From Candidatus Micrarchaeota archaeon (GTDB lineage: Archaea > Micrarchaeota > Micrarchaeia > Norongarragalinales > JAPLXB01): a stretch of 57,179 nucleotides of DNA. Below, piece after piece: positions 8,755 through 55,488 of this stretch (positions within the stretch are counted from its first letter, which is position 1; each line of letters starts with the position of its first letter). The translations under genes and the position numbers were made by a program. Where the stretch lies: assembly GCA_026396285.1 (NCBI GenBank), contig JAPLXB010000027.1, positions 1 through 57,179 of the forward strand, in the 5' to 3' direction. Under the pieces are notes generated by a model. The model was not told where the DNA came from and ran no database searches. It saw only the letters and a program-made list of their open reading frames with translations.

Positions 8755-8799
8755 GCGAGAATTATTAAGCCGTTCAAAGTTTTAATTCCTTGTGAAAGC

Positions 8800-9312
8800 A
8801 TGATTTGCGTCCTTAGACTGGGCCACAGGAAGGCCCGCGATAAGCGCGTGACTACTCACGTCGCCCTGGTTGCGCGCGCGTTCGGCGCGGACAAGGTGAT
8901 GCTCAGCGGCGAGAGGGATGACGCGGTTGTGGAGAGCATAAAAAAGGTTTCAAAAAAATGGGGCGGACGGTTCTCGGCGCGCTATGAAAAGAACTGGAAA
9001 AAAGCCCTGCGCGGATTCAAGGGAACGACGGTCCACTTGACCATGTACGGCCTGCCTCTCTGCGATGTCGTTGGAAAGCTGCGGGGACAAAAAAACATGA
9101 TGGTGATAGTGGGCGCAGAGAAGGTCCCGCGCGAGGTATACTCGCTTGCCGACTTCAACGTGAGTGTCACAAGCCAGCCGCACAGCGAGGTCGCGGCGCT
9201 GGCCGTGTTCCTGCATGAATTTTTTTCCGGCAAGGAGTTGGACAAAAAGTTCGGTGGCGCCGAAATAATACTCGAGCCGTCGGCAAAAGGAAAGAAATTC
9301 GCTCGGAAATAG
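8800..9312 (+). CDS. trm56: tRNA (cytidine56-2'-O)-methyltransferase aTrm56 (SPOUT)
   Basis: The [31 protein letters not shown]-terminus and ~170 aa length are typical of aTrm56. The upstream part of the 293-aa track ORF covers the tRNA-Lys gene and is not coding. Confidence 0.85.
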
Positions 9313-9985: not shown

Positions 9986-10103
9986 AGCGGGGTAGGGTAG
10001 CCAGGAGTGCCCGCTGGGCTCATAACCCGGAACGGAAAACGCGCCCTGATTTTGAAGGCGTTTTTTCGCGGGAAGACCGGTGGTTCAAATCCACCCCCCG
10101 CTA
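9986..10103 (+). tRNA. initiator tRNA-Met (CAU) with a ~43-nt intron at a non-canonical position (43/44, start of variable loop)
   Basis: A1:U72 acceptor AGCGGGG/CCCCGCU, D arm GGGU...GCCC, and anticodon stem CUGGG/CCCGG with three G:C pairs next to loop CUCAUAA. 10031-10073 interrupts the sequence before AGACC and T arm GGUGG-UUCAAAU-CCACC. Confidence 0.8.
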
Positions 10104-25056: not shown

Positions 25057-25236
25057 GCAAGCGAAACTGCCGTTTCCGCAATTCAGAAAACACTTTGTTT
25101 TTCCTTTTCCTATTATTTTTTTCGGCCGCGCGCCGGTGTTTACCGGGGCGCTGGCTGTTTTGGAAAAACTTTTAAACCCCTACTCGTAGTAGGTGTGGGC
25201 GCTCAGACCCACTAAATGTTGTGCCAGGTTGTTTTT

Positions 25237-25692
25237 GTGAAATGTCCTTATTGCTCGCATGCCGAGACGAAGGTCGTCGACTCGCGGGAACCAGATGACT
25301 TTGCGTCAGTGCGCAGGAGGCGCGAGTGCCTGGAGTGCGGGAAAAGGTTCACCACGTACGAACGGGCCGAATTGGTGAAGCTTCTCGTGATAAAGAAGGA
25401 CGGGCGGCGCGAGCAGTTCGACAAGAACAAGCTTATAACCGGCATGTTGAAGGCCTGTGAAAAGAGGCCGGTCAGCGCCGAAGCGGTTTCGCATGCCGCC
25501 GACGAGATAGAGCGCGAGCTCAGGAGGATGGACACGACCGAGATACCGAGCTGGAAGATTGGCGAAATGGTTATCGAGCGGCTGAAGAAGACGGACAAGG
25601 TCGCTTACATACGGTTCGCCTCGGTTTACCGCTCGTTCGAGGACGTTGAATCGTTTGAGAAGGAAGTTAGCAAGCTGCTAAGGAACAAGTGA
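25237..25692 (+). CDS. nrdR: NrdR transcriptional repressor (zinc ribbon + ATP-cone)
   Basis: (M)KCPYCSHAETKVVDSRE...RRRRECLECGKRFTTYER, then ATP-cone VIKKDGRREQFDKNKL and VAYIRFASVYRSFED. GTG 25237 gives the canonical N-terminus. Confidence 0.9.
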   Translation: MKCPYCSHAETKVVDSREPDDFASVRRRRECLECGKRFTTYERAELVKLLVIKKDGRREQFDKNKLITGMLKACEKRPVSAEAVSHAADEIERELRRMDTTEIPSWKIGEMVIERLKKTDKVAYIRFASVYRSFEDVESFEKEVSKLLRNK

Positions 25693-27776
25693 TGGCTTTG
25701 ATAAAGAAAATACGCAAGCGCGACGGGACGACTGTTTACTTCGACAAGAACAAGATAAGCACCGCCATCTTCAAGGCCGCCCAATCCGTCGGCGGAACAG
25801 ACCGGAAGCTGGCGGACAAGCTGGCAGCCAAGGTGCTTGCCGTCCTGGAAAAAGAGGCCAGGGAAAAGAATATCGCCGTCCCGGGAGTGGAGCACGTCCA
25901 GGACACTGTTGAAAAGGTTTTGATTGAAAGCGGCCACGCGAAGACCGCGAAGTCGTACATATTGTACCGCCAGGAGCACAAGATAATCCGCGAGGACGAC
26001 CTGCGGCTTTCGTTCAACGCCTCCAAGGTGCTTGAAAAGAGGTACCTGCGGAAGGACGAGAACGGAACGCCGGCCGAGAGCCCGATTGCGCTCTTCAGGC
26101 GGGTGGCGGCGAACATCGCGTCAGCGGATTCCGCATACCGCGGCGACGCCCGGTCGACGGAAAAGGAATTCTATTACCTGATGACCTCGTTCGAGTTCCT
26201 GCCGAATTCCCCGACGCTGATGAACGCCGGAAGGGAGCTCCAGCAACTCGCAGCCTGCTTCGTGCTGCCCGTGCATGACTCGCTTGAAAGCATTTTCGAC
26301 ACCATAAAGCAGACGTGCATAATCCAGAAGTCCGGGGGTGGGACGGGGTTCTCGTTTTCAAGCATCAGGCCAAAGAACTCGGTCGTGCGCTCAACGTTCG
26401 GCGTGGCTTCCGGCCCGGTTTCTTTCATGAAAGTATTTGATGCCGCGACAGAGGCAGTGAAGCAAGGCGGAACCCGCCGCGGCGCAAACATGGGAATCCT
26501 GCGCGTAGACCACCCGGACATCCTGGAATTCATCACCTGCAAGGAAAACGGGACCGACCTCCAGAACTTCAACATTTCGGTCGCCATGACTGACGAGTTC
26601 ATGAAGGCCGCGGAGGGCGAAAGCGATTATGACCTGATAAACCCGCAGACCAAGCAGCCGGCCGGGTCGCTCAACGCAAGGGAAGTCTTCGACCTGGTGG
26701 CTGAGATGGCGTGGAGGACCGGCGACCCCGGGATAATTTTCATCGACCGCCTCAACGCGGACAATCCGACGCCGTCGCTGGGCGCGATAGAGTCAACCAA
26801 CCCGTGCGGGGAACAGCCCCTCCTCGCTTTTGAGTCCTGCAACCTTGGCTCGGTCAACCTTTCGAAGGCGGTGCGCGACGGGAAGATTGACTGGCTCAAG
26901 CTCGAGCGCGTTGTTCGTTCGGCAGTGCACTTCCTTGACAACGTTATAGACATGAGCAAGTACCCGCTTCCCGAGATAGACCGCATGGTTCGCGCGAACA
27001 GGAAAATCGGCCTAGGCGTGATGGGTTTCGCGGACATGCTGCTCCAACTGGGCCTGCCTTACAATTCGGAAGAGGCCGCGCGCGTCGGCGGCCAGGTGAT
27101 GGAGTTCATAAACGCCGAATCCAAGAAAGCGTCGCGCACCCTCGCTGAAAAGCGCGGGAGTTTCTCCAATTTCGGGAAAAGCACGTGGCCAGCAAAGGGC
27201 TTCAAGGCGTTCAGGAACGCGACGACCACGACCATCGCCCCGACGGGCACGATAAGCATAATCGCGAACTGCTCCAGCGGCATCGAGCCATTGTTCGCGA
27301 TATCCTTCATGCGCGAGGTCATGGAAGGGACGCAGCTGCTTGAAGTCAACCCGTGGTTTGAGAAAATCGCAATACAGCAGGGCTTCTATTCGGAGGAACT
27401 GATGAAAAAGATGGCCGAGAAGGGAACCGTGCACGACCTGCCTGAGGTGCCAAAGGAGATCCAGAAGCTTTTCGTCACCGCCCACGACATAACCCCGGAG
27501 TGGCACGTGCGCATGCAGGCCGCGTTCCAGAAGCACGTGGACAACGCGGTGTCAAAAACCGTGAATTTCGCGAACCACGCCAAGGTGTCCGACGTGGCCA
27601 ACGCCTACTGGCTCGCGTACCGCCTCGGGTGCAAGGGCATAACAATTTACCGCGACGGCAGCAAGGAAAAACAGGTGCTTTACGTGGGTCACAAGAAAAA
27701 AGAGCCGGTGCCGCAGCCTGGCGCCAACGCCGTCCCAATAGAATACTCTGGAGGTTGCAAGACATGCGAGGCGTGA
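25692..27776 (+). CDS. nrdJ: ribonucleoside-(tri/di)phosphate reductase, class II (adenosylcobalamin-dependent) with N-terminal ATP-cone
   Basis: ATP-cone IKKIRKRDGTTVYFDKNKI. Catalytic core motifs LAACFVL, STNPCGEQPL, CNLGS and TIAPTG. Monomeric ~690 aa size, with C-terminal CKTCE. The start overlaps the nrdR stop. Confidence 0.9.
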   Translation: MALIKKIRKRDGTTVYFDKNKISTAIFKAAQSVGGTDRKLADKLAAKVLAVLEKEAREKNIAVPGVEHVQDTVEKVLIESGHAKTAKSYILYRQEHKIIREDDLRLSFNASKVLEKRYLRKDENGTPAESPIALFRRVAANIASADSAYRGDARSTEKEFYYLMTSFEFLPNSPTLMNAGRELQQLAACFVLPVHDSLESIFDTIKQTCIIQKSGGGTGFSFSSIRPKNSVVRSTFGVASGPVSFMKVFDAATEAVKQGGTRRGANMGILRVDHPDILEFITCKENGTDLQNFNISVAMTDEFMKAAEGESDYDLINPQTKQPAGSLNAREVFDLVAEMAWRTGDPGIIFIDRLNADNPTPSLGAIESTNPCGEQPLLAFESCNLGSVNLSKAVRDGKIDWLKLERVVRSAVHFLDNVIDMSKYPLPEIDRMVRANRKIGLGVMGFADMLLQLGLPYNSEEAARVGGQVMEFINAESKKASRTLAEKRGSFSNFGKSTWPAKGFKAFRNATTTTIAPTGTISIIANCSSGIEPLFAISFMREVMEGTQLLEVNPWFEKIAIQQGFYSEELMKKMAEKGTVHDLPEVPKEIQKLFVTAHDITPEWHVRMQAAFQKHVDNAVSKTVNFANHAKVSDVANAYWLAYRLGCKGITIYRDGSKEKQVLYVGHKKKEPVPQPGANAVPIEYSGGCKTCEA

Positions 27777-29365: not shown

Positions 29366-30877
29366 ATGGCGGATCCGGAAATAGAAAAGTACGTGAAGGA
29401 AAACCTGGCCAAAGGCTGCACTTGGGAAGCAATAAGGTTGGAATTGAGGAAAGCGGGCTGGCCGGAAAAGGAAATCAACGAGGCCACGCCAAAGGCAATG
29501 CAGCCGGCACCGGAGGAAACCGTTGCAAAAAAGGCGCCCTCCGCGCTCCCTGCCAAAATGTTTGCAGCGGTCGTAGTCGGCGCAGTCGCCGTGATTGCGG
29601 TTTATTCGGCTTATTTGTATTTTTCCCAGCTTTCCATGCAGCCAAGCGGGGGCGAGATTCCCTTCGAACCGCTGCCGCCGGCTGTTTCGCCGCCGCTGCC
29701 CGAAATGATTGAGCCAACCGCCGTGCCCACTGCGCTCTCAACTCTAATCCCGGCGTTTTCAACGCCGGCGCCCACTTCCGCGCCTACTCCGCCGCCAGTT
29801 ATCCCGGTGATTTACAGCGCGTCAAACTATTCCATCAAAAGCGATTCCGCAATCATTTCATGGATAACCGACGTTCCAAGCACTACGCGCATAATATACG
29901 GAACCGCTTCCCTTAACCAGTCAATTGAAAACGGCGACCAGACGACCGCCCACTACGTGAAACTAACCGGCCTCGCCCCAAACACGACCTACAATTACGC
30001 GGTCGCGAGCTGCGTCAAGTCGGCTTGTAGATACTCGGAAACCAATTCATTCAAAACCCCCTCCATGTGGCTCGATGTCGAAGGAATTGAATTGAGCCCG
30101 CTTGGCCAGACAATCTACGTGAACGATTCCATGCAATTCAATGCGGTGGTGGTTTTGAAAAACGGCACGCGCACAGCCGCCCCGCCGTATATCATTTCAT
30201 GGGACTCGCCCGGTGCCTTGGTTGGCTCAGTAAATTCAACGGGTTTCTTCCAGCCAGCGTCTCCCGGGACCGCAACGGTAAATGTTTCAATTGTAAACGC
30301 AACGGCAACAAACGGCACGATTGTAAACCTCCCAGTCCAAGCCATTTGGAACTCAACCACCATCACTGTTTTGAAGGCCCGGCCCCGGCTATCCATTTCA
30401 ATAACCCCCTCCGACTTTGTGGACTACGGAACGACTACAACAATAACCTGCCAGGCGAACACAAGCCAAGTTACCCCTGCACTCACGAGGGATGGGGCGT
30501 TACTGTCCGGGGCAGCTGATTCCGCGGTGCTGCCGGTCGGCAGCCACTCGTATTCATGTTATTCAAATGAAACGACAAATTACACCTCGGTTTTTACTTA
30601 CGCGACCGTCGGCGTGAGAAAAGTGACTGCATCGCCAAAGCTGCTGGTAAACGGCTCGGAATGGACTGCCGACACGGCGTGGAACATTTCCCAAGGGTTT
30701 TACTACGCCAACTTCAGTTACTCCGGCACCACCGCCGCGTCAACCAGTTCCGAATGCTCATTCAACGTGTTCTGCACAATTCTTAATCTGGGAACGTTCA
30801 CCTTTACAGTATACCATTCAGGGGACGAAAACCACACCGCCACTTCCGTCGTGCGCTACTTCAACGTGATATCGTGA
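29366..30877 (+). CDS. cell-surface glycoprotein-like protein, paralogue of 21010-23376
   Basis: Same layout as the paralogue: short cytoplasmic N-domain (KGCTWEAIRLELRKAGWPEKEINEA), TM, Pro-rich linker, FN3-like module (SAIISWITDVPSTTRIIYG...YNYAVASC), Big_2-like module and many sequons. Confidence 0.7.
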   Translation: MADPEIEKYVKENLAKGCTWEAIRLELRKAGWPEKEINEATPKAMQPAPEETVAKKAPSALPAKMFAAVVVGAVAVIAVYSAYLYFSQLSMQPSGGEIPFEPLPPAVSPPLPEMIEPTAVPTALSTLIPAFSTPAPTSAPTPPPVIPVIYSASNYSIKSDSAIISWITDVPSTTRIIYGTASLNQSIENGDQTTAHYVKLTGLAPNTTYNYAVASCVKSACRYSETNSFKTPSMWLDVEGIELSPLGQTIYVNDSMQFNAVVVLKNGTRTAAPPYIISWDSPGALVGSVNSTGFFQPASPGTATVNVSIVNATATNGTIVNLPVQAIWNSTTITVLKARPRLSISITPSDFVDYGTTTTITCQANTSQVTPALTRDGALLSGAADSAVLPVGSHSYSCYSNETTNYTSVFTYATVGVRKVTASPKLLVNGSEWTADTAWNISQGFYYANFSYSGTTAASTSSECSFNVFCTILNLGTFTFTVYHSGDENHTATSVVRYFNVIS

Positions 30878-37467: not shown

Positions 37468-40248
37468 ATGTCAAAAGGTGGCTGTTTGCTGAGGCGTGAA
37501 GTCATTGAATTGGCCCGGAAAAAGGGGTTCGGGGAGTGGACTGAAATCCAGGAGTCCGCAATTCCGCGCGTTGATGCCGGCGAAGACGTGCTAGTCATTG
37601 CCCCGACTGGCTGGGGAAAGACCGAGGTCGCAATCCTGCCCATTCTTTCAAAACTCATTGACTTGCGGGAGCGCGGGGAGAAAAACGGCATCCAGGCGCT
37701 CTACATCACCCCGCTGCGCGCGCTGAACCGCGACATGCTCGGCCGCCTGGCTTATTGGTGTAGCGAACTGGGCATAAGTCTTTCAGTCAGGCACGGGGAC
37801 ACGACGTCTTACGAGCGCGCGAAACAGCGGGACAACCCGCCGCAGCTGCTCATAACAACTCCGGAAACCCTTTGCGCGCTGCTGATTGCGCCTAAGTTGA
37901 GGGACTCGCTTTCAAACGTCAGGTTCGTGGTCGTGGACGAGGTGCACGAGCTTGTTGACAGCAAGCGCGGCATCCAGTTGAGCATTTCGCTTGAGAGGTT
38001 GCGCGAGCGCGCCGGCGCACTGCAGGTCGTGGGACTGAGCGCAACCGTCGGCAGCGAAAACGACGTCGCCGCATTCCTTTCCCCTTCTGCGAAGGTCGTG
38101 AAGCTCGAGTCCGCGAGGGAGTTTTCCGTGAACGTGGAGTTTCCGTTGGAGAAGTCCGGCGGCGCGGAGATTTTTGGCGAAAGGACGAATGCAAAAATTC
38201 CCCTCATAGCAGGCCTCATTGATTCCCATAAGAAGACACTCTTGTTCGTGAACACGCGCTCGTTCGCGGAGGCGCTCGGTTCGCTGCTTATGAAACTGCC
38301 CGCATTAAAGGAAAAAGTCGCGGTCCACCACTCGTCGCTTTCAAAGGAGTCGCGCGTGGAAGTGGAAGAGAAGTTCAAGAAAGGTGAGCTCAAAGCCGTC
38401 GTGTGCACGTCTTCGCTGGAGCTGGGGATTGACGTGGGCGACATCGACCTGGTGATTCAATTCGTTTCCCCACGGCAGGTCGCGCGCTTCATGCAACGCG
38501 TCGGCAGGAGCGGCCACCGGAAGCATTTGACTCCCAAGGGCGAAATGATTGCAGTGGACGCGCTTGACGCACTCGAGTGCGCAGTCATCGCCCGCAGGGC
38601 GAAGAAGCACCTGCTTGAAGCAACCGAAATCCAAAAGAATTCCCTCGATGTCCTCGCCCACGGCATCGCCGGACTTGCGCTTGACTTCGGGAGCGTGAGT
38701 GTGAAGAAGGCTTTTGAAGTCGTTAAGCGGGCGTTTCCCTACAGCAGCCTCGAAGAAGAGGGGTTCATGCGCGTCGTGAACCAGTTGGCTGGCCAGCGCA
38801 CACTGTTTTTCCGCGACGGGATAATTTCCAAGGGAATGAAGACCAAGCTCTACTATTACGACAATTTGAGCACGATTCCTGACGAGAAGCGGTTCTTCGT
38901 CACAGACGCGGCGACGAGAAAATCCGTGGGAGTACTCCACGAAGGCTTCGTTTCCGAACTCGTTCCCGGCGGCTTGTTCATTGCGCGCGGGCGGCCGTGG
39001 CGCGTCCTCGACATCAGCGAAGAACGCATAATCGTCGAGCGCAGCGACGAAATCAGCGCGGCAATTCCCGAATGGGAGGGCGAGGAGATTCCCGTGCCCC
39101 GTAACATTGCCGAAGAAGTCGGCGAACTGCTAATGCTCCTGCCAATGACTTCGAACGCGGAGCTGAAGCGCGTCTACTCGCTTTCCGACTCGGCAGCGAA
39201 CCGGGTACGGACTTTTGCGTTCAAGCAGAAGGAGTTCTTCGTCCCCGGCGCCTCAACGCTTGTGATTGAATCGCTAGGCAACGCGCTTGTCGTGCATTCC
39301 TTTGCCGGCACGAAAACCAACGAGGCGCTTTCCAGGATAATTTCAGCTCTTCTGGCCTCGGCGCTGGGTTCGGCGGTGCGCACAAGGGTTTCGCCCTATT
39401 GCCTGCTGTTCGAATTTTCAAGGCCCTATCCTTCTGAAAAGTTCACGAGGCTTTTGAAAGAGATCGCGCCCGCGAAGGCAAAAGAAATCCTCCTGGGTTC
39501 GCTGCCCCGGGCGTCGCTTTACCGGTTCAGGTTCGTGCACGTCGCAAAACGCTTCGGGTTCATCCGCAAGGACGCCGACTACAAGGACGTGAGCATAAAG
39601 CGCATCGTTGAAGAGCAGCGCGGGTCGCCTGTTTTTGACGAGGCGATGGCAGAATTGTTCCAAGACAAGATAGACTTGGAAGGGGCCGCGGCACTGCTGG
39701 AAGGCATCCGTTCCGGGAAAGTCCATATCCAGGTTTTTGACGCGGACAAGCGCGGCGTATCCCCGCTTGCAAGGGATTTCCTGGAGTTCAGGGGCTATTC
39801 CGAGTTGTTCGCCCCGCCCGAACCGACCTCGCAAATAATCCGGGCATTCAAGGAAAACCTGTACGTAAAAACCGTTTCCCTGTTGTGCACGCACTGTGCG
39901 AAAACTTTTTCCAAAAAAATCAGCGAACTAGAGGAAACAGTCAACTGTCCATACTGCGGCTCGGGCCAGGTTGCTTTCGCCAAACACCGACAGGCAATCG
40001 AGCGCAAAAAGGAAGGGAAGAAACTGGCGAAGGACGAGCAGAAGGGGTACAGGGACGCGCTCAGGGAGGCTTCAATCATTTCCTCCTATGGAAAACGCGG
40101 CGTCGCCGCCCTTGAAACCTATGGAGTGGGGCCCGAAACCGCGTCCAGGATACTGAAGCGCGTGCACAAGACCGACGAGGACTTTTTCAAGGAACTCCTA
40201 GAGGCGCAGAAGACGTTCGTGAGGACGAAAAGGTACTGGCGCGCGTGA
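37468..40248 (+). CDS. lhr: Lhr-type large DEAD/DEAH-box helicase
   Basis: Motif I APTGWGKT, motif II VVVDEVHE, SAT, HHSSLS, QRVGRSGHR, a long Lhr-type C-terminal region, and zinc ribbon CTHCAK...CPYCGSG. Confidence 0.88.
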   Translation: MSKGGCLLRREVIELARKKGFGEWTEIQESAIPRVDAGEDVLVIAPTGWGKTEVAILPILSKLIDLRERGEKNGIQALYITPLRALNRDMLGRLAYWCSELGISLSVRHGDTTSYERAKQRDNPPQLLITTPETLCALLIAPKLRDSLSNVRFVVVDEVHELVDSKRGIQLSISLERLRERAGALQVVGLSATVGSENDVAAFLSPSAKVVKLESAREFSVNVEFPLEKSGGAEIFGERTNAKIPLIAGLIDSHKKTLLFVNTRSFAEALGSLLMKLPALKEKVAVHHSSLSKESRVEVEEKFKKGELKAVVCTSSLELGIDVGDIDLVIQFVSPRQVARFMQRVGRSGHRKHLTPKGEMIAVDALDALECAVIARRAKKHLLEATEIQKNSLDVLAHGIAGLALDFGSVSVKKAFEVVKRAFPYSSLEEEGFMRVVNQLAGQRTLFFRDGIISKGMKTKLYYYDNLSTIPDEKRFFVTDAATRKSVGVLHEGFVSELVPGGLFIARGRPWRVLDISEERIIVERSDEISAAIPEWEGEEIPVPRNIAEEVGELLMLLPMTSNAELKRVYSLSDSAANRVRTFAFKQKEFFVPGASTLVIESLGNALVVHSFAGTKTNEALSRIISALLASALGSAVRTRVSPYCLLFEFSRPYPSEKFTRLLKEIAPAKAKEILLGSLPRASLYRFRFVHVAKRFGFIRKDADYKDVSIKRIVEEQRGSPVFDEAMAELFQDKIDLEGAAALLEGIRSGKVHIQVFDADKRGVSPLARDFLEFRGYSELFAPPEPTSQIIRAFKENLYVKTVSLLCTHCAKTFSKKISELEETVNCPYCGSGQVAFAKHRQAIERKKEGKKLAKDEQKGYRDALREASIISSYGKRGVAALETYGVGPETASRILKRVHKTDEDFFKELLEAQKTFVRTKRYWRA

Positions 40249-40373
40249 ACGCGCCGCACGCAAGCGGACGCGCGGGTCGCGGGCGAAGTTTTTTTAAGCA
40301 ATGCCTGTTGTTTTTGTTTTGTTCCGCGCTTTTGCGGGGGGCGCAGCTTGTCTTTTTCAGGAGTTGTTTGACA

Positions 40374-40988
40374 ATGCCGATTATTGACGCTAACTACCTG
40401 GCTTACTTGGCTGACGCGAAGAAAATCGGGTCCCACCGCAGTGACGCGGAAAAGGAAATGCTTCGGCAGGACCTCAAGGCCTCGCTGCTTGCAACTCTTG
40501 CAACTGACTTGGAATTGGAGAACAGGCGCGGGGGCAGGGACGTTAAGGAACTCGTTCTCCGCGGAAGGGCGTTCTTCAACCAGGGCGAGTACTTGAAGAA
40601 TTTTTCAGAAGAGGAGATCCGCGCCGGCGCGCATTTGGAACTCCTGAAGGAACTTGGCCAGCGCGTGCGCCAGATAAAGGAAGAAACGGATTCCTTTGCC
40701 AAGACCAACGCATTCCTCTACCAGCAGCTGGCGGAAGTAATCCTGCCGATTATTTCAACGCCCGGCGCAGACGCCCAGATTCTGGTAACCCGCCTTTCAA
40801 GGACTGACCTTCTTTTGAAGCCGCCGGAACAAGCAGCGTCAGAAGCGATTGCGCAAGCCGCCCAGCAGGAAGGAACAGGCGCACAGCAAGGCGCTCAGGA
40901 GGCGCACGCGCTTCCGGAGCCGCCGAAAAAAGAGAAGAAAAGTTTTTTCTCGCGCCTAGGCGGGCTTTTTGGAAAACGCGGACAATAA
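40374..40988 (+). CDS. hypothetical helical protein with basic amphipathic C-terminal tail
   Basis: ORF with ATG at 40374. The tail is KKEKKSFFSRLGGLFGKRGQ. Confidence 0.45.
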   Translation: MPIIDANYLAYLADAKKIGSHRSDAEKEMLRQDLKASLLATLATDLELENRRGGRDVKELVLRGRAFFNQGEYLKNFSEEEIRAGAHLELLKELGQRVRQIKEETDSFAKTNAFLYQQLAEVILPIISTPGADAQILVTRLSRTDLLLKPPEQAASEAIAQAAQQEGTGAQQGAQEAHALPEPPKKEKKSFFSRLGGLFGKRGQ

Positions 40989-41155
40989 GCCGCGGATTTT
41001 GTTGAACAGTCCGCGCTTAACCGGCTGCGTCCTCGGCTGCCCTTGGGGATGCTTTTGCTGCCGCGGAAACGATTCCACGACCAGCCACTCGGGCGGCCCG
41101 GGCGGCGCCCTCTCCTCAACCTCCAATTCCCTGACCCTGACAACAACAGGCTTTT

Positions 41156-41641
41156 TCACTGAACCACCCGCGGCCGGTTGTGCTTTTCGACAGGCGTCAG
41201 CCCAAATTCTTCCGGGTGCTTGACGAGGTATTCCGCCGCCTCCTTGTTCAAGGGACTTGCAGGATTCGGGTTGTCCAACAGCTGTTTCAGCGCGTCCACC
41301 ACGCTCCTAACAGTCTGCGTTTCCGCCCAGTCGTTCACCAGAAGGATACAGACTTTTCCATCGCTTTCCCTGATGTTCGGGTGGAAAATGGGCGTCAGCC
41401 ACACGACGTCTATGCCGCCAGGGTAAGGATATTCGCGCGTAAGCCGCACGCGCACCTCGTGCGCCGAGCGTTTCTTGATTATGCCGTGTTCGCGGCAAAG
41501 CGCTCCGCCCTCGAGGAAAACCCGGTACTCCGTGTGCTCCTGGTTAGCTTGGAACCTTGCCCCGCTGGCGCGCATTTCCTCAAACTCGCTCTCGAGCCTG
41601 CGCCTCCAAATTGATTCAGGCAACTGCGGCATGGAATCCAC
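41156..41641 (-). CDS. ubiquitin-conjugating enzyme E2 (UBC fold) homologue
   Basis: N-terminal helix WRRRLESEFEEM, then YPYPGGIDVVWLTPIFHPNIRESDGKVCILLVNDW....VRSVVDALKQLLDNPNPASPLN. This gives the HPN triad, a catalytic Cys 8 residues later, Trp, and the PNP.SPLN tail. Confidence 0.9.
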   Translation of the reverse strand: MDSMPQLPESIWRRRLESEFEEMRASGARFQANQEHTEYRVFLEGGALCREHGIIKKRSAHEVRVRLTREYPYPGGIDVVWLTPIFHPNIRESDGKVCILLVNDWAETQTVRSVVDALKQLLDNPNPASPLNKEAAEYLVKHPEEFGLTPVEKHNRPRVVQ

Positions 41642-41663
41642 TTTGATTACGCCGGGAAACGGG

Positions 41664-41906
41664 TTACCCGCCAGTGGGGTCCGGCATGAGCAGGAGCGAA
41701 TCCCCTTCCTTCAAGCCAACGTCCGCAATAGTGGCGTCGGGGTCGAGAATCTGATTTTCCTTCGTCGCCAGCACGAACCTGTCCTTGAGCTTCAGATTTT
41801 CCGCAAGAACTTCAAGCAGGGAACTGACCGTGAATTCCGGCTCAACAGCGAGCGTGATTTCCTTTCCAGTAGTCGTATGGGTCACTGAAATGTTGAATTC
41901 GACCAT
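41664..41906 (-). CDS. ubiquitin homologue (beta-grasp, 80 aa) ending in Gly-Gly-stop
   Basis: The translation is MVEFNISVTHTTTGKEITLAVEPEFTVSSLLEVLAENLKLKDRFVLATKENQILDPDATIADVGLKEGDSLLLMPDPTGG*. GK.ITL.VEP..T and the C-terminal ..L.L....GG align with eukaryotic ubiquitin. The upstream part of the 134-aa track ORF has non-coding-like composition. Confidence 0.88.
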   Translation of the reverse strand: MVEFNISVTHTTTGKEITLAVEPEFTVSSLLEVLAENLKLKDRFVLATKENQILDPDATIADVGLKEGDSLLLMPDPTGG

Positions 41907-41978
41907 AGCACCATCTTTTTTATGCCAAGCAAACTTATTCTTAAAACAATTAAATAAGGTTGCGGAGGCCGGGTTCCA

Positions 41979-42296
41979 GTGGACAAACCGAGGATAGTCG
42001 CCATCAAGGAAAAAACCCTGGTTGAGGCAAAGGAAGGAACAGGGGAAACGCCCGCGACCGGCGCCCAAGAGACAGAAATGACAGAACCCGTTCCCCGAAA
42101 AGAGGTTGCACGCGGCCCGCCGTGGGTAGTGAGGGAAGCGATAGAAGCGCGGAAAAAAGCGTTGCCCGAGGCGGCTGAGAAAATAATCGAGGAACAGGCG
42201 AAGGACATTATCCCGACTGTCCCCGAACTAGGAGAGCCGGTGATGGTGAAGAAAAAGGGCTTGGCGGGACGGCTCTTAGGATGGGTTTTCAAGTGA
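41979..42296 (+). CDS. hypothetical E/K-rich protein inside the ubiquitin module
   Basis: ORF fills the 405-nt gap between the Ub and JAMM genes. GTG start (uncertain). The C-terminus is KKKGLAGRLLGWVFK. The antisense ORF 41882-42292 looks non-coding. Confidence 0.4.
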   Translation: MDKPRIVAIKEKTLVEAKEGTGETPATGAQETEMTEPVPRKEVARGPPWVVREAIEARKKALPEAAEKIIEEQAKDIIPTVPELGEPVMVKKKGLAGRLLGWVFK

Positions 42297-42311
42297 TGCG
42301 GCGGGAGTGGT

Positions 42312-42806
42312 TTGTTGTTCGAAGCCTATGTTGAAAAAAGCGTCGTCGAAGCAGCGGAAGGATTTTTTTCAACCATGGCCGCGCGCGGGCTGGAGGCAAT
42401 GGGCCTCCTCGCAGGCAGGGTTTTTACCTGGCGCGGCAAGCGCTACGCCGTTGCAGAGGATTTCGTGACCGCAAAAAACAAGGCTTCCGCGGTGTCAGTG
42501 AGGTTTTCCGAGGACGGGTTCGGTGAACTCGTTGAAAAACTGGAGAAAACCGCGCGCAAAAGGAAAAAAATATTCGTCGGCTGGGCGCACAGCCACCCCG
42601 GATACGGGTGCTTCCTTTCAGGAACGGACGTTGACACGCAACGCAAGTATTTTCCGGAGCCGTTTCATGTGGCAATGGTGATTGACCCGTTGAAGCGCGA
42701 CGGCGAAGGGTTTATGAAGAGATTATACAAACTTGATGAACGCGGATACAGGGAGGCGTCGTTCGCAGTGATTGAGCGGGCGCGCGGAAGTGGCTTCCAT
42801 GGCTGA
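42312..42806 (+). CDS. Rpn11/CSN5-like JAMM (MPN+) isopeptidase
   Basis: LEAMGLLAGRV supplies the catalytic Glu. VGWAHSHPGYGCFLSGTDVDTQ closely parallels the eukaryotic Rpn11/CSN5 motif GWYHSHPG.GCWLS..D..TQ. TTG start. Confidence 0.88.
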   Translation: MLFEAYVEKSVVEAAEGFFSTMAARGLEAMGLLAGRVFTWRGKRYAVAEDFVTAKNKASAVSVRFSEDGFGELVEKLEKTARKRKKIFVGWAHSHPGYGCFLSGTDVDTQRKYFPEPFHVAMVIDPLKRDGEGFMKRLYKLDERGYREASFAVIERARGSGFHG

Positions 42807-43728
42807 AAAATTCAAGTTCACGGTATTCGACAAGCACGTGCTGGAAAAAGTCAGCGCCGGCGAAAACGACCTGAAAAACATTTGCGCCGCGCTCAATGTG
42901 GACTGGAAGGACTTCCAGGCACGCACCCGCATCCTCGTTAAAAAAAGCCTCCTTATGCTGGACGAGAGCGATTCAAACCTCGCCCGCCTGGGCGTGGAAG
43001 GATACAACGCGCTCCATCCCGCGGAAAAGCCGAAGCGGACCGCGGCAAAACGCAAGCCCAAGGCCGGGAAAACCGTTGAGAAAATCCCGGACGCGCAGGG
43101 ACTGGAACAACCGCTTTCCAGCCAGGCACAGGAGTCGAAGCCAACCGAACCGCAGACCCAGCACAAACTCGCGGAACCAGAAGCCCGCGGGCAGGAGCCG
43201 CACGACCCGGACAACCCGCACAACGACTACATCGACATTCCATACAACCCGCTGATACACGGCCCCAACGGCTCCGTGCCGGAGAAGAAAAAGGAAACGG
43301 TTCCCGCGGCCGTCGAGAAGCCAAAGCCGCCTGCTGCTGCAACGAAACCGGACCAGATTGACCTGATTGAAATTTTTGAAAAATACGGGGTAAAGAAAAA
43401 ACAGGCGATAAAGGAAAAACTCGGGGAACTGAGCAAGGCCATTGACGACAAGCCCCTGTCAACCACGCTCGCGACAATAGCGCGCGAAGGCAAATACGAG
43501 AGCGAGGAAAAATGCGACTTGTGCAAGGCGCCCTTCAGGCTTTCTCTAAGGAAGGACAACCACCCAAAATACGGCCACTGCTTCTGCGGCGCCGCCTACC
43601 ACAAGGACTGCTACGAAAGCCTTTTGGACCGGAACGGCAAGTGCCTGAGGTGCGGGAAAAAACTGGTGCTAATGCTTGACAAGCAGAGCGAAGACGCGGT
43701 CAAGGCCGTGAAAAAACTCTTCGAATGA
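42799..43728 (+). CDS. winged-helix + long disordered linker + C4HC3 RING-type zinc-finger protein (candidate E3)
   Basis: The C-terminus is CDLC-x18-CFC-x4-H-x2-C-x10-CLRC, with eight ligands in cross-brace spacing. The N-terminus FDKHVLEKVSAGENDLKNICAALNVDWKDFQARTRILVKKSLLMLDE is wH-like. The ATG overlaps the JAMM stop by 8 nt. Confidence 0.8.
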   Translation: MAEKFKFTVFDKHVLEKVSAGENDLKNICAALNVDWKDFQARTRILVKKSLLMLDESDSNLARLGVEGYNALHPAEKPKRTAAKRKPKAGKTVEKIPDAQGLEQPLSSQAQESKPTEPQTQHKLAEPEARGQEPHDPDNPHNDYIDIPYNPLIHGPNGSVPEKKKETVPAAVEKPKPPAAATKPDQIDLIEIFEKYGVKKKQAIKEKLGELSKAIDDKPLSTTLATIAREGKYESEEKCDLCKAPFRLSLRKDNHPKYGHCFCGAAYHKDCYESLLDRNGKCLRCGKKLVLMLDKQSEDAVKAVKKLFE

Positions 43729-43771
43729 CTCCGGCCGCGCTTGCCGCCCCAACCAACGCCAACCTAGCGGT

Positions 43772-44383
43772 TCAACAGGCTTGGACGAATTCATTGAACA
43801 CGTCGTCGATGTTCAGGACCTTGTTCTTTATCTCAAAGATTATGAACGCCTTGTTCAGGTTGTCTGAAACGCACGAAATGGCGCCGGCGCTGAACTGGGC
43901 CATCAAACCCTCATCCCTGACTTCATAGAAGACAGACTTGCCTCCGATGTTTTTGGTTTTCGAGTAAATTGCACCCATTCCCGGCCTAATCTCCTCGGCA
44001 GTCGGCCGCCTGACCCTAATCAAGTAATTGACGTCAACACCCGCTTCCTTGATTTTGAGTTCCTTTTCATAGTAAAGCCCCCACACCTGGTTCGTCGTGT
44101 ACTGGTCCAGCGTAAACGGCTTCAGGTTGGTGAAAAGCTTGTTGACAGACGCCTCCACTTTTGACTTCACCGCTTCCAAGTTGAACGTAGGCGCAATCGT
44201 GGTCGGCGTCGCAGTCTGCTGGATCTGCCCGATCGGAGTAGGCGAAACGCTTGCCGCCGAGGCCGCCGGAGTCGCGCTTGCCTGTATCGTAGGCACAGGC
44301 GTCGGGGACGCGGCCGGCGCGCCAACGCAGCCGAACAAAAGCAGCGAAAAAACCAACGGCAAGATAAAAAGCAACTTGTTCAT
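43772..44383 (-). CDS. secreted lipoprotein-like protein
   Basis: MNKLLFILPLVFSLLLFGCVGAP lipobox-like signal, followed by a Pro/Thr/Ala-rich linker. Confidence 0.55.
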   Translation of the reverse strand: MNKLLFILPLVFSLLLFGCVGAPAASPTPVPTIQASATPAASAASVSPTPIGQIQQTATPTTIAPTFNLEAVKSKVEASVNKLFTNLKPFTLDQYTTNQVWGLYYEKELKIKEAGVDVNYLIRVRRPTAEEIRPGMGAIYSKTKNIGGKSVFYEVRDEGLMAQFSAGAISCVSDNLNKAFIIFEIKNKVLNIDDVFNEFVQAC

Positions 44384-44468
44384 ACCATCCCCTCCTCCCA
44401 GCAAAAACCCAAGTGGCTAATTCAATGGCGGTTAATAAACTTTTTTTCCACCGCGTTGTCGGCAATCT

Positions 44469-45236
44469 TTAGGGGTGCACGGGACAGCTCTTCCTCTTCG
44501 GCACCCGGAACACCCTGCTGATGCCATCCAAGCCGTTGAACGACCAGTATTTTCCAGCCAGCCCCTCGCGGCCGTGGACCAATTTGATGAATTCATTGAC
44601 TTGGACTGCTGCCACGAGGCTCGTGGTAGTGGGCAGCGCAGGCATCTTCGGGTCAAGGAAATCCAGCAGCTCGCCGACGCATGAATACTTCTTCCACAAC
44701 AGCTTGTAATCCTGCCTGCTCATCCCGCACTCGATGCACGACGACCCGCCGGCCACCACCTGCGCCTTCCCGAAAAACCCGGCGGTTCCCCCGTCAAACA
44801 AGGGCATTTTACCATAGCAGTGCGCGTTGAGGGAAAGGCGCGCGCCCAAGTTGTCCAAGCACCCGAACGCGTGGGTGAAGGCGTTGAAAAAACCCTCTCC
44901 CACGTCCTCCAGTTTTCCGACAACCGGGATTATTTTGGACGGCCCCAGTTTTGCGGCTTCCCTCGCCAGCGCCTCGGCCTTGTACTCGCCTCCCTTCGCG
45001 TGGCCGTCGTTGAAAAAAACGCATCGGTTAAGGTTCGCGGCAACAATCCGGTCATAATCGACTACCGCGATTTCCCCTACCCCGAGTTGGACAAGGAGCT
45101 TAACAACCTCGTTGCCAAGCGCGCCTGCGCCGGCGACCAGCGCCCGCGTCCCTCCAACTGCGGCCTGGTCCCATCCATCCACCCGCTTTTGGCGGTCGAA
45201 ACGGTCCTCGTCAACTTTTTTTATTGCAGCAGGCAT
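44469..45236 (-). CDS. ThiF/MoeB/UBA-type E1-like activating enzyme (minimal, 255 aa)
   Basis: FDRQKRVDGW......ALVAGAGALGNEVVKLLVQLGVGEIAVVDYDRIVAANLNRC is the Rossmann GxGxxG plus NLNR motif, with CIEC zinc-site remnant. ATG 45236; the upstream track extension overlaps dtdA. Confidence 0.85.
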   Translation of the reverse strand: MPAAIKKVDEDRFDRQKRVDGWDQAAVGGTRALVAGAGALGNEVVKLLVQLGVGEIAVVDYDRIVAANLNRCVFFNDGHAKGGEYKAEALAREAAKLGPSKIIPVVGKLEDVGEGFFNAFTHAFGCLDNLGARLSLNAHCYGKMPLFDGGTAGFFGKAQVVAGGSSCIECGMSRQDYKLLWKKYSCVGELLDFLDPKMPALPTTTSLVAAVQVNEFIKLVHGREGLAGKYWSFNGLDGISRVFRVPKRKSCPVHP

Positions 45237-53208: not shown

Positions 53209-53892
53209 TCATTGCTTGCTTTTGTTGTTCTCGTATTTTGCCGAAATCACTTTCCTCATTTCGCGCGCCCGGACCTTGCCGACTCCGCCTGCCTCCATCA
53301 ATTCTTTTTCGGTTGCGGTAAAAACCCTTTCCACGCTCCCGAAATGCGCGAGCAGGCTTTTGGCAGTCACCGGGCCGATGAGGGGAAGGCCTTCCACGAT
53401 GAACTGCTGGTAAAGCTCGAGCGGGAACGCCCTTTTCTCCAACCGCAGCCGCAGCTCCTTTTCCGGCTGGATTTGCTCGCGGAACGCCGCTTGGTAAACG
53501 AATTCGGCAAACCCTTCGTCGTCCTTGACGACGTGCACCGGCAGCCTGTAATCAACCATTAACGCAATCAGCGCCCCCCGAACGGCCTTCATTTCAAGGC
53601 GCTCGAACTTGCTGCCGACAAGCACCAGGAGCGGCCTTTCAAAGTTTTCCACGAGTTCCTTCGCCTGCGCAAATAGCCGGCCGTCCATTATGCTGGACTC
53701 AAAATCCGTGGAGGATTTCTTTTCTATCCCCACGCGCTTGGAAATGACGAAGTCGGCGACTGCAAGCCGTTTCACGGTTATTTCCGCGCCCAATTCCGCG
53801 AGGCGAGAGACCGCAAGCGAATCAGCCTCGCGGTCGTCAACCACCACGACAACTTTCCCGGCCTCGGGTTTGAAAACGATTTCAGAAGCCAC
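53209..53892 (-). CDS. XPF/ERCC4-type nuclease with C-terminal (HhH)2 (Hef nuclease half)
   Basis: VVVDDRE and ADFVISKRVGIEKKSSTDFESSIMDGRLF form the ERCC4 motif. The HhH tail is LLAHFGSVERVFTATEKELMEAGGVGKVRA. GTG start, in frame with the upstream helicase ORF. Confidence 0.85.
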   Translation of the reverse strand: MASEIVFKPEAGKVVVVVDDREADSLAVSRLAELGAEITVKRLAVADFVISKRVGIEKKSSTDFESSIMDGRLFAQAKELVENFERPLLVLVGSKFERLEMKAVRGALIALMVDYRLPVHVVKDDEGFAEFVYQAAFREQIQPEKELRLRLEKRAFPLELYQQFIVEGLPLIGPVTAKSLLAHFGSVERVFTATEKELMEAGGVGKVRAREMRKVISAKYENNKSKQ

Positions 53893-53913
53893 GAAAAAGG
53901 AAAGGCGCGGGCA

Positions 53914-55488
53914 TTAAAAGAATTCGCCGATGCTTTTCTGGCCTGTCGAAGGCCGCGTTTCCCCGCCTGTTCCAGCTTCGCGCTTTTCGCCTCCGCGCAC
54001 TCCTGCATCATGCATTTCCTTCTTCATTTCAGCCAGCGTCTTCTTCATCGTCTTCTCCTTTCGCTTCGAAATCCACAAATACGCCTCGTCCTTGGTGTCC
54101 TCCGCCACCAACACGACTGCCCGGCCCGCCTTCACCCTGCCCGCCCGCCCACGGCGCTGGATCAACCTGATTTCGGACGGAACCGCCTCGTAAAACACGA
54201 CCTCGTCAACCGCAGGAATGTCCAGTCCCTCTTCGCCGACCTGCGTCGCCACCAAGACATTGAATTCCTTTTCCCTGAATGAATCAACCAACCCAATCTG
54301 TTCCTTTTGCTTCATTCCGCCGTCGCCGCTCCTTCCGACCAGCAGCCGTGCGTCCACGCCCTTGATTTTGTTCAAGTCGCGCAACACGTTTTTCGCGGAA
54401 TCGCGGTAATGCACGAAGACAATGAGGTAATTTCCCGCCAGCGTTTCGCGCTCGACGATTTCCTTCAACTTCGCCGCCTTGGGGTGCTCTATTCCGGCTG
54501 CGAGGAGGCTCCTGCACTCCAGTTTTATCTCATCAACGCGCGGGTCGGCAAGCAGCCTGATTACTGCCTTTGATTTTTCCTCGCGTCCGGCCATCCCTTC
54601 CAAGAAATTTAACAACGCTTCCACGCCCTGGCTTTCAAGCAAGTCAACTGCATGCACGAGGTTAATCGCCCTCGCCAATTCACTCAGCGCCTTGTACGTC
54701 TTCGGCAGCTGCCTCAGCATCTGCCCCCGTAGTAGGAGCAACTGCTTCTTGTTCGGCCGCTTTGCCTTGATTGAAAAGCCGTAGGCCGTGATCATTTTCG
54801 CGCTTTCTTCAACCATTGCCAAAAGCATTGCCCGCAGCGCCACTATTTCCGGCGGCAGTTTCACGAAAACCCAGTCGAATTCAATCCTTTTCACGTACTG
54901 TAACACGTCCGCGTCCTCAAGCCCCCTTGACTCAATCTGCGCAATGCCGAGGTTGTCGCATACTTCCCGGACTTTTTCCTTTTCAGAAGAAGGCGAAGCG
55001 GTGAGCCCGAGCACGAGGACGTTTTTTCTCTTAGCCGCAGCGCCTATTGGCACGTATGCATAGTCGCCGACCGCGCGGTGGGCCTCGTCAAACACGATAA
55101 GCGCATACTGCGCCAAGTCAATCCTGTCCTTCGCCAAGTCGTTTTCAATGCACTGCGGCGTGGCGGAAACAACCTGCGCTGCCGCATAAGCTTTTTTCCT
55201 TTCAACCGGATTCATTTCGCCGGTCGCCAGCACCACGTCCCCGCCGATTTCCAGCAATTCCTTTATCCGCCGCGCCTGCTGGGCAGCCAGCGGCTTCGTG
55301 GGCGCCAAAAACAAGAATTTTGCGCCAGGGTTTTTCTTCAACAACGCCGCCATCACCAGCAGCGCCACAAACGTTTTTCCCAGAGCAGTAGGCATGACGA
55401 CAAGCGTGTTCGCGCGCGCCGCGCCCTCGGCAACCCGCGCCTGGTAGTCCCTGGCTTCAAAACCCTTCCTCAACGGCAGGCCGTCCAA
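53914..55488 (-). CDS. hef: Hef/FANCM-type DEAH helicase (Hef helicase half)
   Basis: RDYQ, MPTALGKT, FDEAHRA, GLTASP and QRRGRAGR. TTG start. The TAA stop lies 21 nt upstream of the nuclease start. Confidence 0.85.
   Translation of the reverse strand: MDGLPLRKGFEARDYQARVAEGAARANTLVVMPTALGKTFVALLVMAALLKKNPGAKFLFLAPTKPLAAQQARRIKELLEIGGDVVLATGEMNPVERKKAYAAAQVVSATPQCIENDLAKDRIDLAQYALIVFDEAHRAVGDYAYVPIGAAAKRKNVLVLGLTASPSSEKEKVREVCDNLGIAQIESRGLEDADVLQYVKRIEFDWVFVKLPPEIVALRAMLLAMVEESAKMITAYGFSIKAKRPNKKQLLLLRGQMLRQLPKTYKALSELARAINLVHAVDLLESQGVEALLNFLEGMAGREEKSKAVIRLLADPRVDEIKLECRSLLAAGIEHPKAAKLKEIVERETLAGNYLIVFVHYRDSAKNVLRDLNKIKGVDARLLVGRSGDGGMKQKEQIGLVDSFREKEFNVLVATQVGEEGLDIPAVDEVVFYEAVPSEIRLIQRRGRAGRVKAGRAVVLVAEDTKDEAYLWISKRKEKTMKKTLAEMKKEMHDAGVRGGEKREAGTGGETRPSTGQKSIGEFF

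Follow-up and report, generated by a model that had tools for sequence, protein, structure and literature searches.

Organisation and Conservation of the Locus

The window analysed here (the whole 57,179-nt stretch of the Micrarchaeota contig JAPLXB010000027.1) harbours, in the region 41156-45236, a cluster of genes resembling a complete ubiquitylation module. The original prediction, made from the DNA letters, had placed in this region an activating enzyme (E1), a conjugating enzyme (E2), a RING-type zinc-finger protein (the candidate ligase, E3), a ubiquitin homologue (Ub) and an Rpn11-like JAMM protease. All five open reading frames (ORFs) exist where, and on the strands on which, they had been placed; the hidden Markov model (HMM) searches proposed along with them show four of the five proteins passing curated Pfam cut-offs (UQ_con, JAB, ThiF and Rad60-SLD). 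The refuting conditions set out with the prediction did not arise in the tests made. The conserved set comprises seven genes in three transcription units, namely Ub-E2-micro-ORF, KPRIV protein-JAMM-(winged helix-RING) and E1. The sixth and seventh genes encode small proteins sharing a KP[RK]IV motif; one of them (41979-42296) had been labelled an orphan ORF, wrongly, as its syntenic counterparts and HMM matches mark it as a conserved member of the module. Taken together, the module quite probably represents a chromosomal, vertically inherited ubiquitin-type conjugation system of the Micrarchaeota (DPANN archaea).

The conservation of this arrangement was assessed by scanning one genome per species, which yielded 212 E2 relatives with the signature WL[TS]PIFHPN; the best 80 were kept as loci. 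These best 80 of 212 include 37 from Micrarchaeota, many from Thermoplasmatota and a few from bacteria, along with one locus each from Bathyarchaeota, Sigynarchaeum, Helarchaeota and Desulfurococcales. In 29 of the 37 Micrarchaeota species, tblastn recovered the order E1(+), RING(-) JAMM(-), Ub(+) E2(+), which is the layout of the window seen from the other strand; among the remaining eight loci, seven are cut by contig ends and one has no E1 within 3.7 kb. Thus, the split-strand layout had been described correctly as to strands, while it had been missed that the split state is itself the conserved norm of the lineage. The finger gene directly follows the JAMM gene in the loci examined, and the flanking genes are often shared as well (Lhr beyond E2, AAA_22 beyond E1). 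The Ub-E2 and KPRIV-JAMM-RING units diverge from a 72-bp, AT-rich intergenic region (41907..41978), which, as read from the sequence, holds the TATA-like elements TTAAATAA / TTTTAAGAATAAG and is likely to be a promoter region. Comparable TATA-like elements occur upstream of Ub in related loci, often together with a ribosome-binding site of the GAGGTGGT type.

The host belongs to the Micrarchaeota, a DPANN lineage, and is not a relative of the Aigarchaeota or Asgard archaea. This follows from its archaeal gene content, its even GC content (52-58% across the window) and its E2 homologues, nearly all of which, where a source is named, come from Micrarchaeota or Norongarragalinales. The archaeal content includes intron-containing tRNAs, TFE, aTrm56, the archaeal D-Tyr-tRNA deacylase (DTD2), Lhr and a split Hef. 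Most of the window consists of housekeeping genes (for example, enolase, iPGM, phosphoenolpyruvate carboxylase, CTP synthase, ribonucleotide reductase and ribosomal protein S2), and the module is part of this ordinary chromosome and not of an island. If the genes came from a mis-binned eukaryotic contaminant, or had only very recently been acquired from a eukaryote, this would be in keeping with the eukaryotic origin of the best solved-structure relatives. Nevertheless, identity to eukaryotic proteins is only about 30%, the contig itself carries the archaeal tRNAs, TFE, aTrm56, DTD2 and Lhr, and its composition is uniform. The synteny of the module in at least 29 Micrarchaeota species effectively refutes such an origin, the probability of which is negligible.

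Modifier and Conjugating Enzyme

The E2 gene (41156..41641, minus strand) encodes a UBC-fold protein that exceeds the Pfam UQ_con cut-off by a wide margin (E=2.4e-18, 66.5 bits against 27). As had been claimed, an HPN triad (H87-P88-N89) is followed by the catalytic C98 with a separation of 8 residues; both the UBC fold and a cysteine in register are present. These residues, together with W105, are invariant in 38/38 orthologues. In the PDB, human UBE2A/Rad6 ranks first (3e-13), with the HPN and the active-site Cys aligned, and further eukaryotic E2s come next. The true start is most likely the ATG at 41632, giving a product of 158 aa, because homologues begin with MPxLPE and have this length. 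A total of 116 homologues was retrieved; those with a named source are nearly all from Candidatus Micrarchaeota or Norongarragalinales (45-92% identity), and public annotation already calls some of these proteins 'ubiquitin-conjugating enzyme E2'.

The ubiquitin-like modifier (41664..41906, minus strand) is an 80-aa protein encoded in its mature form, ending in ...PDPTGG directly before the stop codon. Its description as a ubiquitin homologue is borne out by the Pfam family Rad60-SLD (SUMO-like), which is passed with 27.0 bits against a cut-off of 23.8, and by PDB matches to ubiquitin and to the ubiquitin-like (UBL) domains of Dsk2 and Rad23; the threshold of the ubiquitin family proper (PF00240) is just missed (20.7 bits against 25.4). 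None of MoaD, ThiS and SAMP appears among the best 60 PDB matches listed. The protein is 29% identical to human ubiquitin and, among the window proteins, it is the most conserved in the Micrarchaeota loci (64-80% identity by tblastn). Of 36 Micrarchaeota sequences that were compared, nearly all keep the C-terminus [LM]PDPTGG, and most of the genes stop exactly at GG, while a few add one or two residues.

Activating Enzyme

The E1 gene (44469..45236, minus strand) encodes a ThiF-fold protein of 255 aa with an RFDRQ motif, a GAGALG nucleotide loop and a zinc site (C167xxC170...C251xxH254). The prediction of a minimal ThiF-type E1 thus proved accurate, the Pfam ThiF score being 123.8 bits (E=8e-36) against a cut-off of 28.1. 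RFDRQ and GAGALG are conserved among orthologues, D128 was read from the sequence, and the zinc ligands C167, C170, C251 and H254 are invariant (30 sequences). Against the PDB, the highest matches are UBA3 (2.5e-18), Uba1 (2.5e-17) and SAE2 (4.6e-17), with MoeB (1.8e-13) and ThiF (3.5e-9) ranking lower. The alignment leaps from residue 197 to 281 of UBA3 (its Cys domain) over a crossover segment of ~24 residues in the query, and ends at the zinc site. This segment contains C186 within the motif DYxxxWxKYSCxG, invariant in 30/30 orthologues, at the position where MoeB and ThiF carry their crossover-loop Cys. The canonical E1 architecture, with a separate Cys domain and a C-terminal ubiquitin-fold domain (UFD), was found neither in the window protein nor among the orthologues, all of which are about 250 aa long.

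The small size of this enzyme, its MoeB-type zinc site and the cysteine at the MoeB/ThiF crossover position, along with a faint ThiS match to Ub (E=0.09), would fit a sulfur-carrier or SAMP system for cofactor or tRNA thiolation, in which the E2-like and finger proteins are incidental. However, the NCBIfam equivalogs for ThiF, MoeB and UbaA score just 50-65 bits against cut-offs of 275-450 (TIGR02356, 65.4 against 275; TIGR02355, 49.5 against 377; NF047750, 49.6 against 450), so no sulfur-carrier equivalog threshold is reached. Furthermore, the E1 is nearer to UBA3, Uba1 and SAE2 than to MoeB/ThiF, the modifier matches ubiquitin and UBLs as described above, and its partners always include a catalytically intact E2 and an Rpn11-type JAMM. 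The genome of a relative encodes a second ThiF elsewhere, beside NifU and a cysteine desulfurase, which likewise speaks against a sulfur-carrier role for the module; such a role is highly improbable.

JAMM Protease

The gene at 42312..42806 (plus strand) encodes an MPN+/JAMM metalloprotease of the Rpn11/CSN5 type. Its metal-site and catalytic residues (E28, H93-S-H95, S103, D106) are conserved, with E28, H93, H95, S103 and D106 invariant in 35/35 orthologues. The Pfam family JAB (PF01398; E=1e-9, 38.6 bits against a cut-off of 22.5) outranks Prok-JAB. The zinc motif had been judged closer to Rpn11/CSN5 than to the minimal prokaryotic JAMMs, in agreement with the top PDB matches, which are CSN5 (2.9e-13), Rpn11 (4e-12) and the Rpn11 of Caldiarchaeum (6fjv, 7.5e-11), while AMSH follows at 8e-5 and no minimal prokaryotic JAMM was matched at E <= 0.01.

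Winged-Helix/Zinc-Finger Protein

The candidate E3 gene (42799..43728, plus strand) overlaps the stop of the JAMM gene by 8 nt, an overlap that had been read correctly. Its product, the candidate E3, is read as a winged helix-turn-helix (wHTH)-linker-RING protein. The winged helix-turn-helix domain (42823..43014, plus strand; about residues 9-72) is followed by a variable disordered linker and by a C-terminal C4HC3 RING-like finger, the core of which lies at 43513..43653 (plus strand; C239, C242, C261, C263, H268, C271, C282, C285). In the family alignment, ~70 N-terminal residues form a conserved domain, the linker is variable and of low complexity, and the finger is the best-conserved part (mean column identity 58%, against 26% overall).

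The eight-ligand finger announced by the original prediction does exist, with the spacing CxxC-x18-CxC-x4-HxxC-x10-CxxC invariant in 38 homologues. Its assignment to the RING type is favoured by this cross-brace ligand pattern and by a RING-fold model, while no RING threshold of Pfam was reached. A Pfam scan with the whole protein gave weak RING matches (E about 0.2); scanned member by member, the family matches Prok-RING_1 in 30/30 and zf-RING_2 in 29/30 cases, all under the gathering scores. The AlphaFold2 (AF2) model of the finger has a predicted local distance difference test score (pLDDT) of 69. In Foldseek searches with this model, the top 50 PDB matches are all RING E3 domains (probability up to 0.98, E 0.05-0.3), including EL5, APC11, RNF165 (template modelling score (TM) 0.72, root-mean-square deviation 2.8 Å), TRIM21, Rbx and gp78, and several of the top matches were solved in E2 complexes. 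A profile of the finger likewise gave eight weak PDB matches, the top seven being RING proteins (gp78, RCHY1, Cwc24 and RNF24). A phmmer search of the PDB with the whole candidate E3 returned noise only, the matches coming instead from the domain-wise profiles.

The family is narrowly distributed. The candidate E3 has 64 homologues, of which those with a named source are all Micrarchaeota, and a precomputed Pfam domain is present in none. Searched against 1.84 billion representative proteins, the finger profile retrieved 74 proteins, 72 of them at E <= 1e-10, with a gap in between. An expression for the eight RING ligands matched, in each Micrarchaeota locus where it matched at all, exactly one ORF, always the syntenic one, and nothing else among 8413 ORFs; it gave no match in the non-Micrarchaeota loci. 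Judged from its sequences, the finger family is closed, lineage-restricted and RING-like. It also has an invariant Leu between ligands 1 and 2, an aromatic residue after ligand 6 and a basic residue after ligand 8. RING domains contact E2~Ub at positions of this kind.

The N-terminal domain is a confident winged helix of the MarR/Lrp type: its profile matches the Lrp/AsnC protein PH0140 (7e-6) as well as MarR/ZitR in the PDB, its AF2 model (pLDDT 86) has the H-H-H-strand-strand fold, and Foldseek places it with MarR-family repressors (probability 1.0, TM about 0.7). This leads to the rival explanation that the cascade is real, with conjugation by E1 and E2 only, and that the wHTH-finger protein is not an E3 but a DNA-binding regulator acting on the module or on other genes. 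The sub-threshold scores of all RING sequence matches agree with such a role, as does the occurrence of related E1-Ub-E2-JAMM operons devoid of any eight-ligand finger, in which conjugation presumably proceeds by E1 and E2 alone. On the other hand, the resemblance of the finger model to RING E3 domains in all top 50 matches (several solved with E2), the invariant cross-brace spacing, the invariant Leu, aromatic and basic residues at contact-like positions, and the placement of the gene (in translational coupling with JAMM in the window and directly after it in the loci examined) are better suited to a ligase. A regulator in place of an E3 is therefore considered unlikely, and the wHTH-RING protein is treated below as the candidate ligase. 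An operator fitting the winged helix was sought upstream of Ub across loci, and no shared palindrome was found, just the TATA-like and ribosome-binding elements.

Two further observations concern this protein. The linker contains, at about residues 190-210, a short conserved motif, [LIV]DLxE[LIV]xxK[YG][GA]P (also written DLxE[LI]xxK[YG]GP). Besides, the winged-helix profile weakly matches the C-terminal WHB region of cullin-4A/4B (E 0.007-0.07); the match may be due to chance, and it recalls the pairing of the cullin WHB with the Rbx1 RING.

KPRIV-Motif Proteins

The micro-ORF (40956..41159, minus strand), read from the sequence, encodes 67 aa (MKKPVVVRVRELEVEERAPP...KRGLFNKIRGLLSAFSKKPA) with an N-terminal KP[RK]IV...EER.PP motif, and its start codon, GTG, runs into the stop codon of E2 (GTGA). 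Nearly all Micrarchaeota loci have an ORF of 35-67 aa behind E2, in most cases immediately behind it and in several with a start that overlaps the stop of E2; the consensus of these ORFs is MKKP[RK]IVxVKE...EREPP. An HMM built from the other loci only retrieves the window copy at E=2.9e-10. A homologue search with the micro-ORF found 14 called micro-proteins, all from Micrarchaeota where the source is named and listed as hypothetical proteins in a few public genomes; no fusion of the motif was found in this search at the database-wide threshold.

The second KPRIV protein, the former 'orphan' (41979..42296, plus strand), is a low-complexity and probably disordered protein of 105 aa encoded 15 nt upstream of the JAMM gene. 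It carries an N-terminal MDKPRIV, an internal EEQAKDIIP...GEP and a basic hydrophobic C-terminal tail. The protein has no family in the Pfam scan, and jackhmmer started from the window copy alone finds itself only; its homology is visible solely through HMMs derived from the syntenic ORFs of other loci. Most Micrarchaeota loci have a low-complexity ORF of 82-440 aa directly upstream of JAMM on the same strand, and these ORFs share an M(D)KP[RK]IV N-terminus, a C-terminal [EQ]QA[AS]RD[IV]xP...G.P and a tail that is basic and hydrophobic. With the window left out of its construction, a C-terminal HMM picks out 41979-42296 at E=0.002 among 8413 ORFs, and the micro-ORF HMM matches its N-terminus (E=1.2e-5).

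The same micro-ORF HMM matches the first ~25 residues of the JAMM proteins (~220 aa) encoded after E2 in Thermoplasmatota (E 3e-6 to 2e-3). These proteins begin with M.RP[RK]IV.ETKR..EE[RK].PP..., followed by a spacer of ~40 residues and an Rpn11-like domain (for example, L057:2037-2696, L073:6509-7174 and L078:6341-7015, along with other Thermoplasmatota loci). The motif thus forms part of JAMM in Thermoplasmatota but is free in Micrarchaeota, where the micro-ORF occupies the position of the fused N-terminus right after E2. Because the motif is fused in one lineage and a free copy lies directly after E2 in the other, the free KPRIV proteins are read as having arisen by gene fission plus duplication. 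The motif is likely to work with JAMM and/or E2.

Tails of the type K(K)GFFxKLKxxLGF are present at the C-termini of 41979-42296, of 40956-41159 and of ORFs in many other loci, and resemble the amphipathic membrane-targeting sequence of MinD. In a hydrophobic-moment shuffle test, the C-terminal tails were not significant, and neither was the MinD tail; membrane targeting by these tails is only a lead. A similar tail ends the product of a 247-aa ORF of no family (40245-40988, plus strand), which starts at the Lhr stop codon and terminates in KKEKKSFFSRLGGLFGKRGQ; the C-terminal HMM of the 'orphan' matches it weakly (E about 0.01-0.05), and tblastn found no homologue of it in the other loci.

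Neighbouring Genes

The prediction had mentioned an interposed lipoprotein gene before E1. A lipoprotein-like ORF with the lipobox LLFGC and a Pro/Thr/Ala-rich linker does lie at 43772-44404 (minus strand; no family assigned). It is a variable insert and was rejected as a module member, since tblastn found no counterpart in other loci and unrelated inserts occupy the same junction elsewhere. Other loci likewise have variable insertions between E1 and RING; the genes there include L006:1750-2244 and L019:3174-3593, which encode secreted PT-rich proteins that are cupredoxin-like by eye.

Several features further from the module deserve mention. Rfam detects two long, probably intron-containing tRNA genes (8621-8754(-) and 9986-10103(+)) missed by ARAGORN, as well as a tRNA-Cys at 8276-8347(-). 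The ORF 8431-9312 overlaps one of these tRNA genes, so the real start of aTrm56 must be further downstream, near 8960. A bacterial-type NrdR repressor (zinc ribbon and ATP cone) is encoded directly upstream of the ribonucleotide reductase large subunit (25216-27776(+)). The Hef-like nuclease (ERCC4 and HhH) and the helicase are two adjacent genes (53209-55488(-)) instead of one fused protein. Two large proteins, encoded at 21010-23376(+) and 29366-30877(+), have a purple-acid-phosphatase N-terminal (fibronectin-like) module as their sole recognisable domain and may be surface proteins.

Proposed Mechanism

The chemical steps proposed for the module are drawn by analogy from the Caldiarchaeum system, which has been reconstituted (PMC5654768, PMC6043591). 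The E1, which probably forms a homodimer like MoeB and ThiF, would adenylate the GG end of the ready-made 80-aa modifier at the expense of ATP, and the modifier would then be bound as a thioester to C186 in the crossover loop and handed to C98 of the E2. The RING finger may bind E2~Ub and promote its discharge onto substrate lysines, while the winged helix and the linker might select or localise the substrates. The Rpn11-like JAMM would strip the modifier off again, and the two KP[RK]IV proteins could act with JAMM and/or E2 as tethers or regulators.

Certain points weigh against this scheme. The E1 is devoid of the Cys domain and UFD by which canonical E1s bind and charge E2, so that the transfer from E1 to E2 has no modelled route. 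The finger stays under every Pfam gathering score, its model is of moderate confidence, and the winged helix could instead mark the protein as a regulator. The Thermoplasmatota and bacterial operons without detectable RING suggest that an E3 may be dispensable. Apart from these, no proteasome or other Ub receptor is encoded within the window.

Implications

Complete archaeal E1/E2/RING/Ub/Rpn11 sets have been central to the case that ubiquitin signalling in eukaryotes has an archaeal origin. A syntenic system found throughout a DPANN phylum, the genomes of which are about 1 Mb, would alter and widen the known archaeal distribution of such sets, and its retention throughout the phylum in genomes of ~1 Mb argues that the system does something which reduced cells cannot lose. 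The module also offers a very small, soluble protein set for studying how a MoeB-sized E1 without a UFD charges a true UBC E2 and how a minimal RING works. Similarly, the KPRIV proteins and the wHTH-RING architecture provide new handles on the targeting of a deubiquitinase and a ligase.

A more far-reaching combination of these readings is put forward tentatively, and its being right in all parts is doubtful: the ultra-small Micrarchaeota would possess a core seven-component ubiquitylation machine with a nucleic-acid- or chromatin-directed wHTH-RING E3, in which JAMM, and possibly E2, is organised by KP[RK]IV...EER.PP, and which shares its ancestry with the Thermoplasmatota operons. If so, RING-dependent ubiquitylation would not be confined to the Asgard and TACK archaea and would be no marker of closeness to eukaryotes. 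The relationship with the Thermoplasmatota, the phylum that hosts the cultivated Micrarchaeota, is relevant to the question of gene exchange between DPANN symbionts and the cells that host them.

Comparison With Known Systems

Several archaeal and bacterial systems share components with the module. Those of the SAMP/UbaA/HvJAMM1 and Urm1/ELSA types share with it a JAMM, an E1 of MoeB size and a beta-grasp modifier that ends in GG. However, they have no E2 or E3, whereas an intact E2 is an invariant neighbour in the Micrarchaeota module, and the SAMP models score far below their cut-offs on the window proteins (UbaA equivalog, 49.6 against 450; desampylase, 19.3 against 130). The separation from SAMP/TtuB-type systems that had been proposed therefore stands.

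Bacterial operons of E1, E2, Ubl and JAMM, such as Bil (BilABCD) and type II CBASS with Cap2/Cap3, are defence systems (PMC10557695) and share with the module these four component types and a minimal E1 without UFD. The module could accordingly be imagined as an anti-virus defence of the Bil or CBASS-Cap2 kind, conjugating its Ubl to viral or immune proteins. PADLOC gives partial matches of the E1 to Cap2 E1-E2 fusions and a weak JAB match on JAMM, and homologous E1-E2-JAMM sets do occur in a few bacteria. Nevertheless, the E1 matches extend over ~70 Rossmann-fold residues only, and neither the E2, Ub and finger nor the small proteins are matched by the PADLOC models. The Bil/Cap2 JAMM is AMSH-like, with no RING and in a defence-island context, whereas that of the window is of the Rpn11/CSN5 type in a conserved housekeeping context; the same neighbourhood recurs in dozens of species with uniform GC and no variable island. 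A defence function is thus very unlikely, and a conjugation system of the ordinary chromosome remains the preferred reading.

The nearest sequence relatives of the Micrarchaeota module are the RING-less, co-directional E1-Ub-E2-JAMM operons in Methanomassiliicoccales and related Thermoplasmatota, which, like the E1...E2-JAMM sets of a few bacteria (Solirubrobacterales), were found among the loci L042-L080. The sets share a minimal E1 (33-45% identity), an E2 with WLTPIFHPN (31-43%) and an Rpn11-like JAMM with GWYHSHPG...S..D (36-48%). They differ in having no eight-ligand finger, in being a single co-directional operon and in a Ub that is 24-27% identical in most. The KPRIV motif (KP[RK]IV...EE[RK].PP) is present in Thermoplasmatota as well, though fused to JAMM. 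These sets may be the bacterial-like 'Cluster III' of PMC5654768. Bacterial E2s with WLTPIFHPN were seen in Solirubrobacterales (L064, L066-L068, L070), Anaerolineae (L081) and Planctomycetota (L082); the Solirubrobacterales loci have E2, a minimal E1 and JAMM, and L081 and L082 have E2 and JAMM only. The presence of the same E2 signature in bacterial genomes suggests that this type of operon was transferred between domains.

Surveys place complete archaeal sets in Aigarchaeota, Asgard archaea, some Crenarchaeota, Bathyarchaeota-related (MCG) archaea and one marine Euryarchaeote (PMC4327156, PMC5654768, PMC4571567). In the full-text literature on Micrarchaeota or DPANN and ubiquitin, subscription journals being outside the scope, no description of such a system was found.

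The Asgard systems (Loki-, Odin-, Thor- and Heimdallarchaeota; Clusters I/II of PMC5654768) have the same repertoire of E1/E2/RING/Ub/JAMM, and E2s with WL[TS]PIFHPN occur in a Sigynarchaeum and a Helarchaeota genome (33-39% identity). Their E1s usually have a C-terminal UBL domain (PMC5654768) and the systems are often ESCRT-linked (10.1101/2020.10.19.343400), neither of which is seen in the Micrarchaeota module. Conversely, no wHTH-RING or KPRIV protein was found in the flanks (up to 6 kb) of the Sigynarchaeum and Helarchaeota loci.

The operon of Caldiarchaeum subterraneum, with Ub, E1, E2, a small RING finger protein and an adjacent Rpn11, has been reconstituted in vitro (PMC3082918, PMC5654768, PMC6043591). 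The two systems are alike in the five types of component (the finger protein here being a candidate E3), a UBC E2 with HPN and Cys, an Rpn11-type JAMM, a modifier about 30% identical to ubiquitin with a GG end, and clustered genes among which that of the protease runs the opposite way. In Caldiarchaeum, the E1 includes a Cys domain of 60 aa as well as a C-terminal UBL/UFD (PMC5654768, PMC11354881), whereas that of the window has 255 aa and a crossover of ~24 residues. Its E3 is a small RING finger protein, compared with the wHTH-linker-C4HC3 protein here (family about 220-420 aa), and its Ub has a 9-residue propeptide, in contrast to the modifier of the window, which is encoded mature. Furthermore, the Caldiarchaeum genes form one operon in an aigarchaeote, while those of the window form three transcription units in a DPANN archaeon, with two extra KPRIV proteins. 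The Micrarchaeota module is therefore read as the same kind of machine as those of Caldiarchaeum and the Asgard archaea in a different build: its E1 is minimal, its wHTH-RING protein belongs to a closed family, its Ub is encoded mature, and its genes, which include those of two extra motif proteins, form three transcription units.

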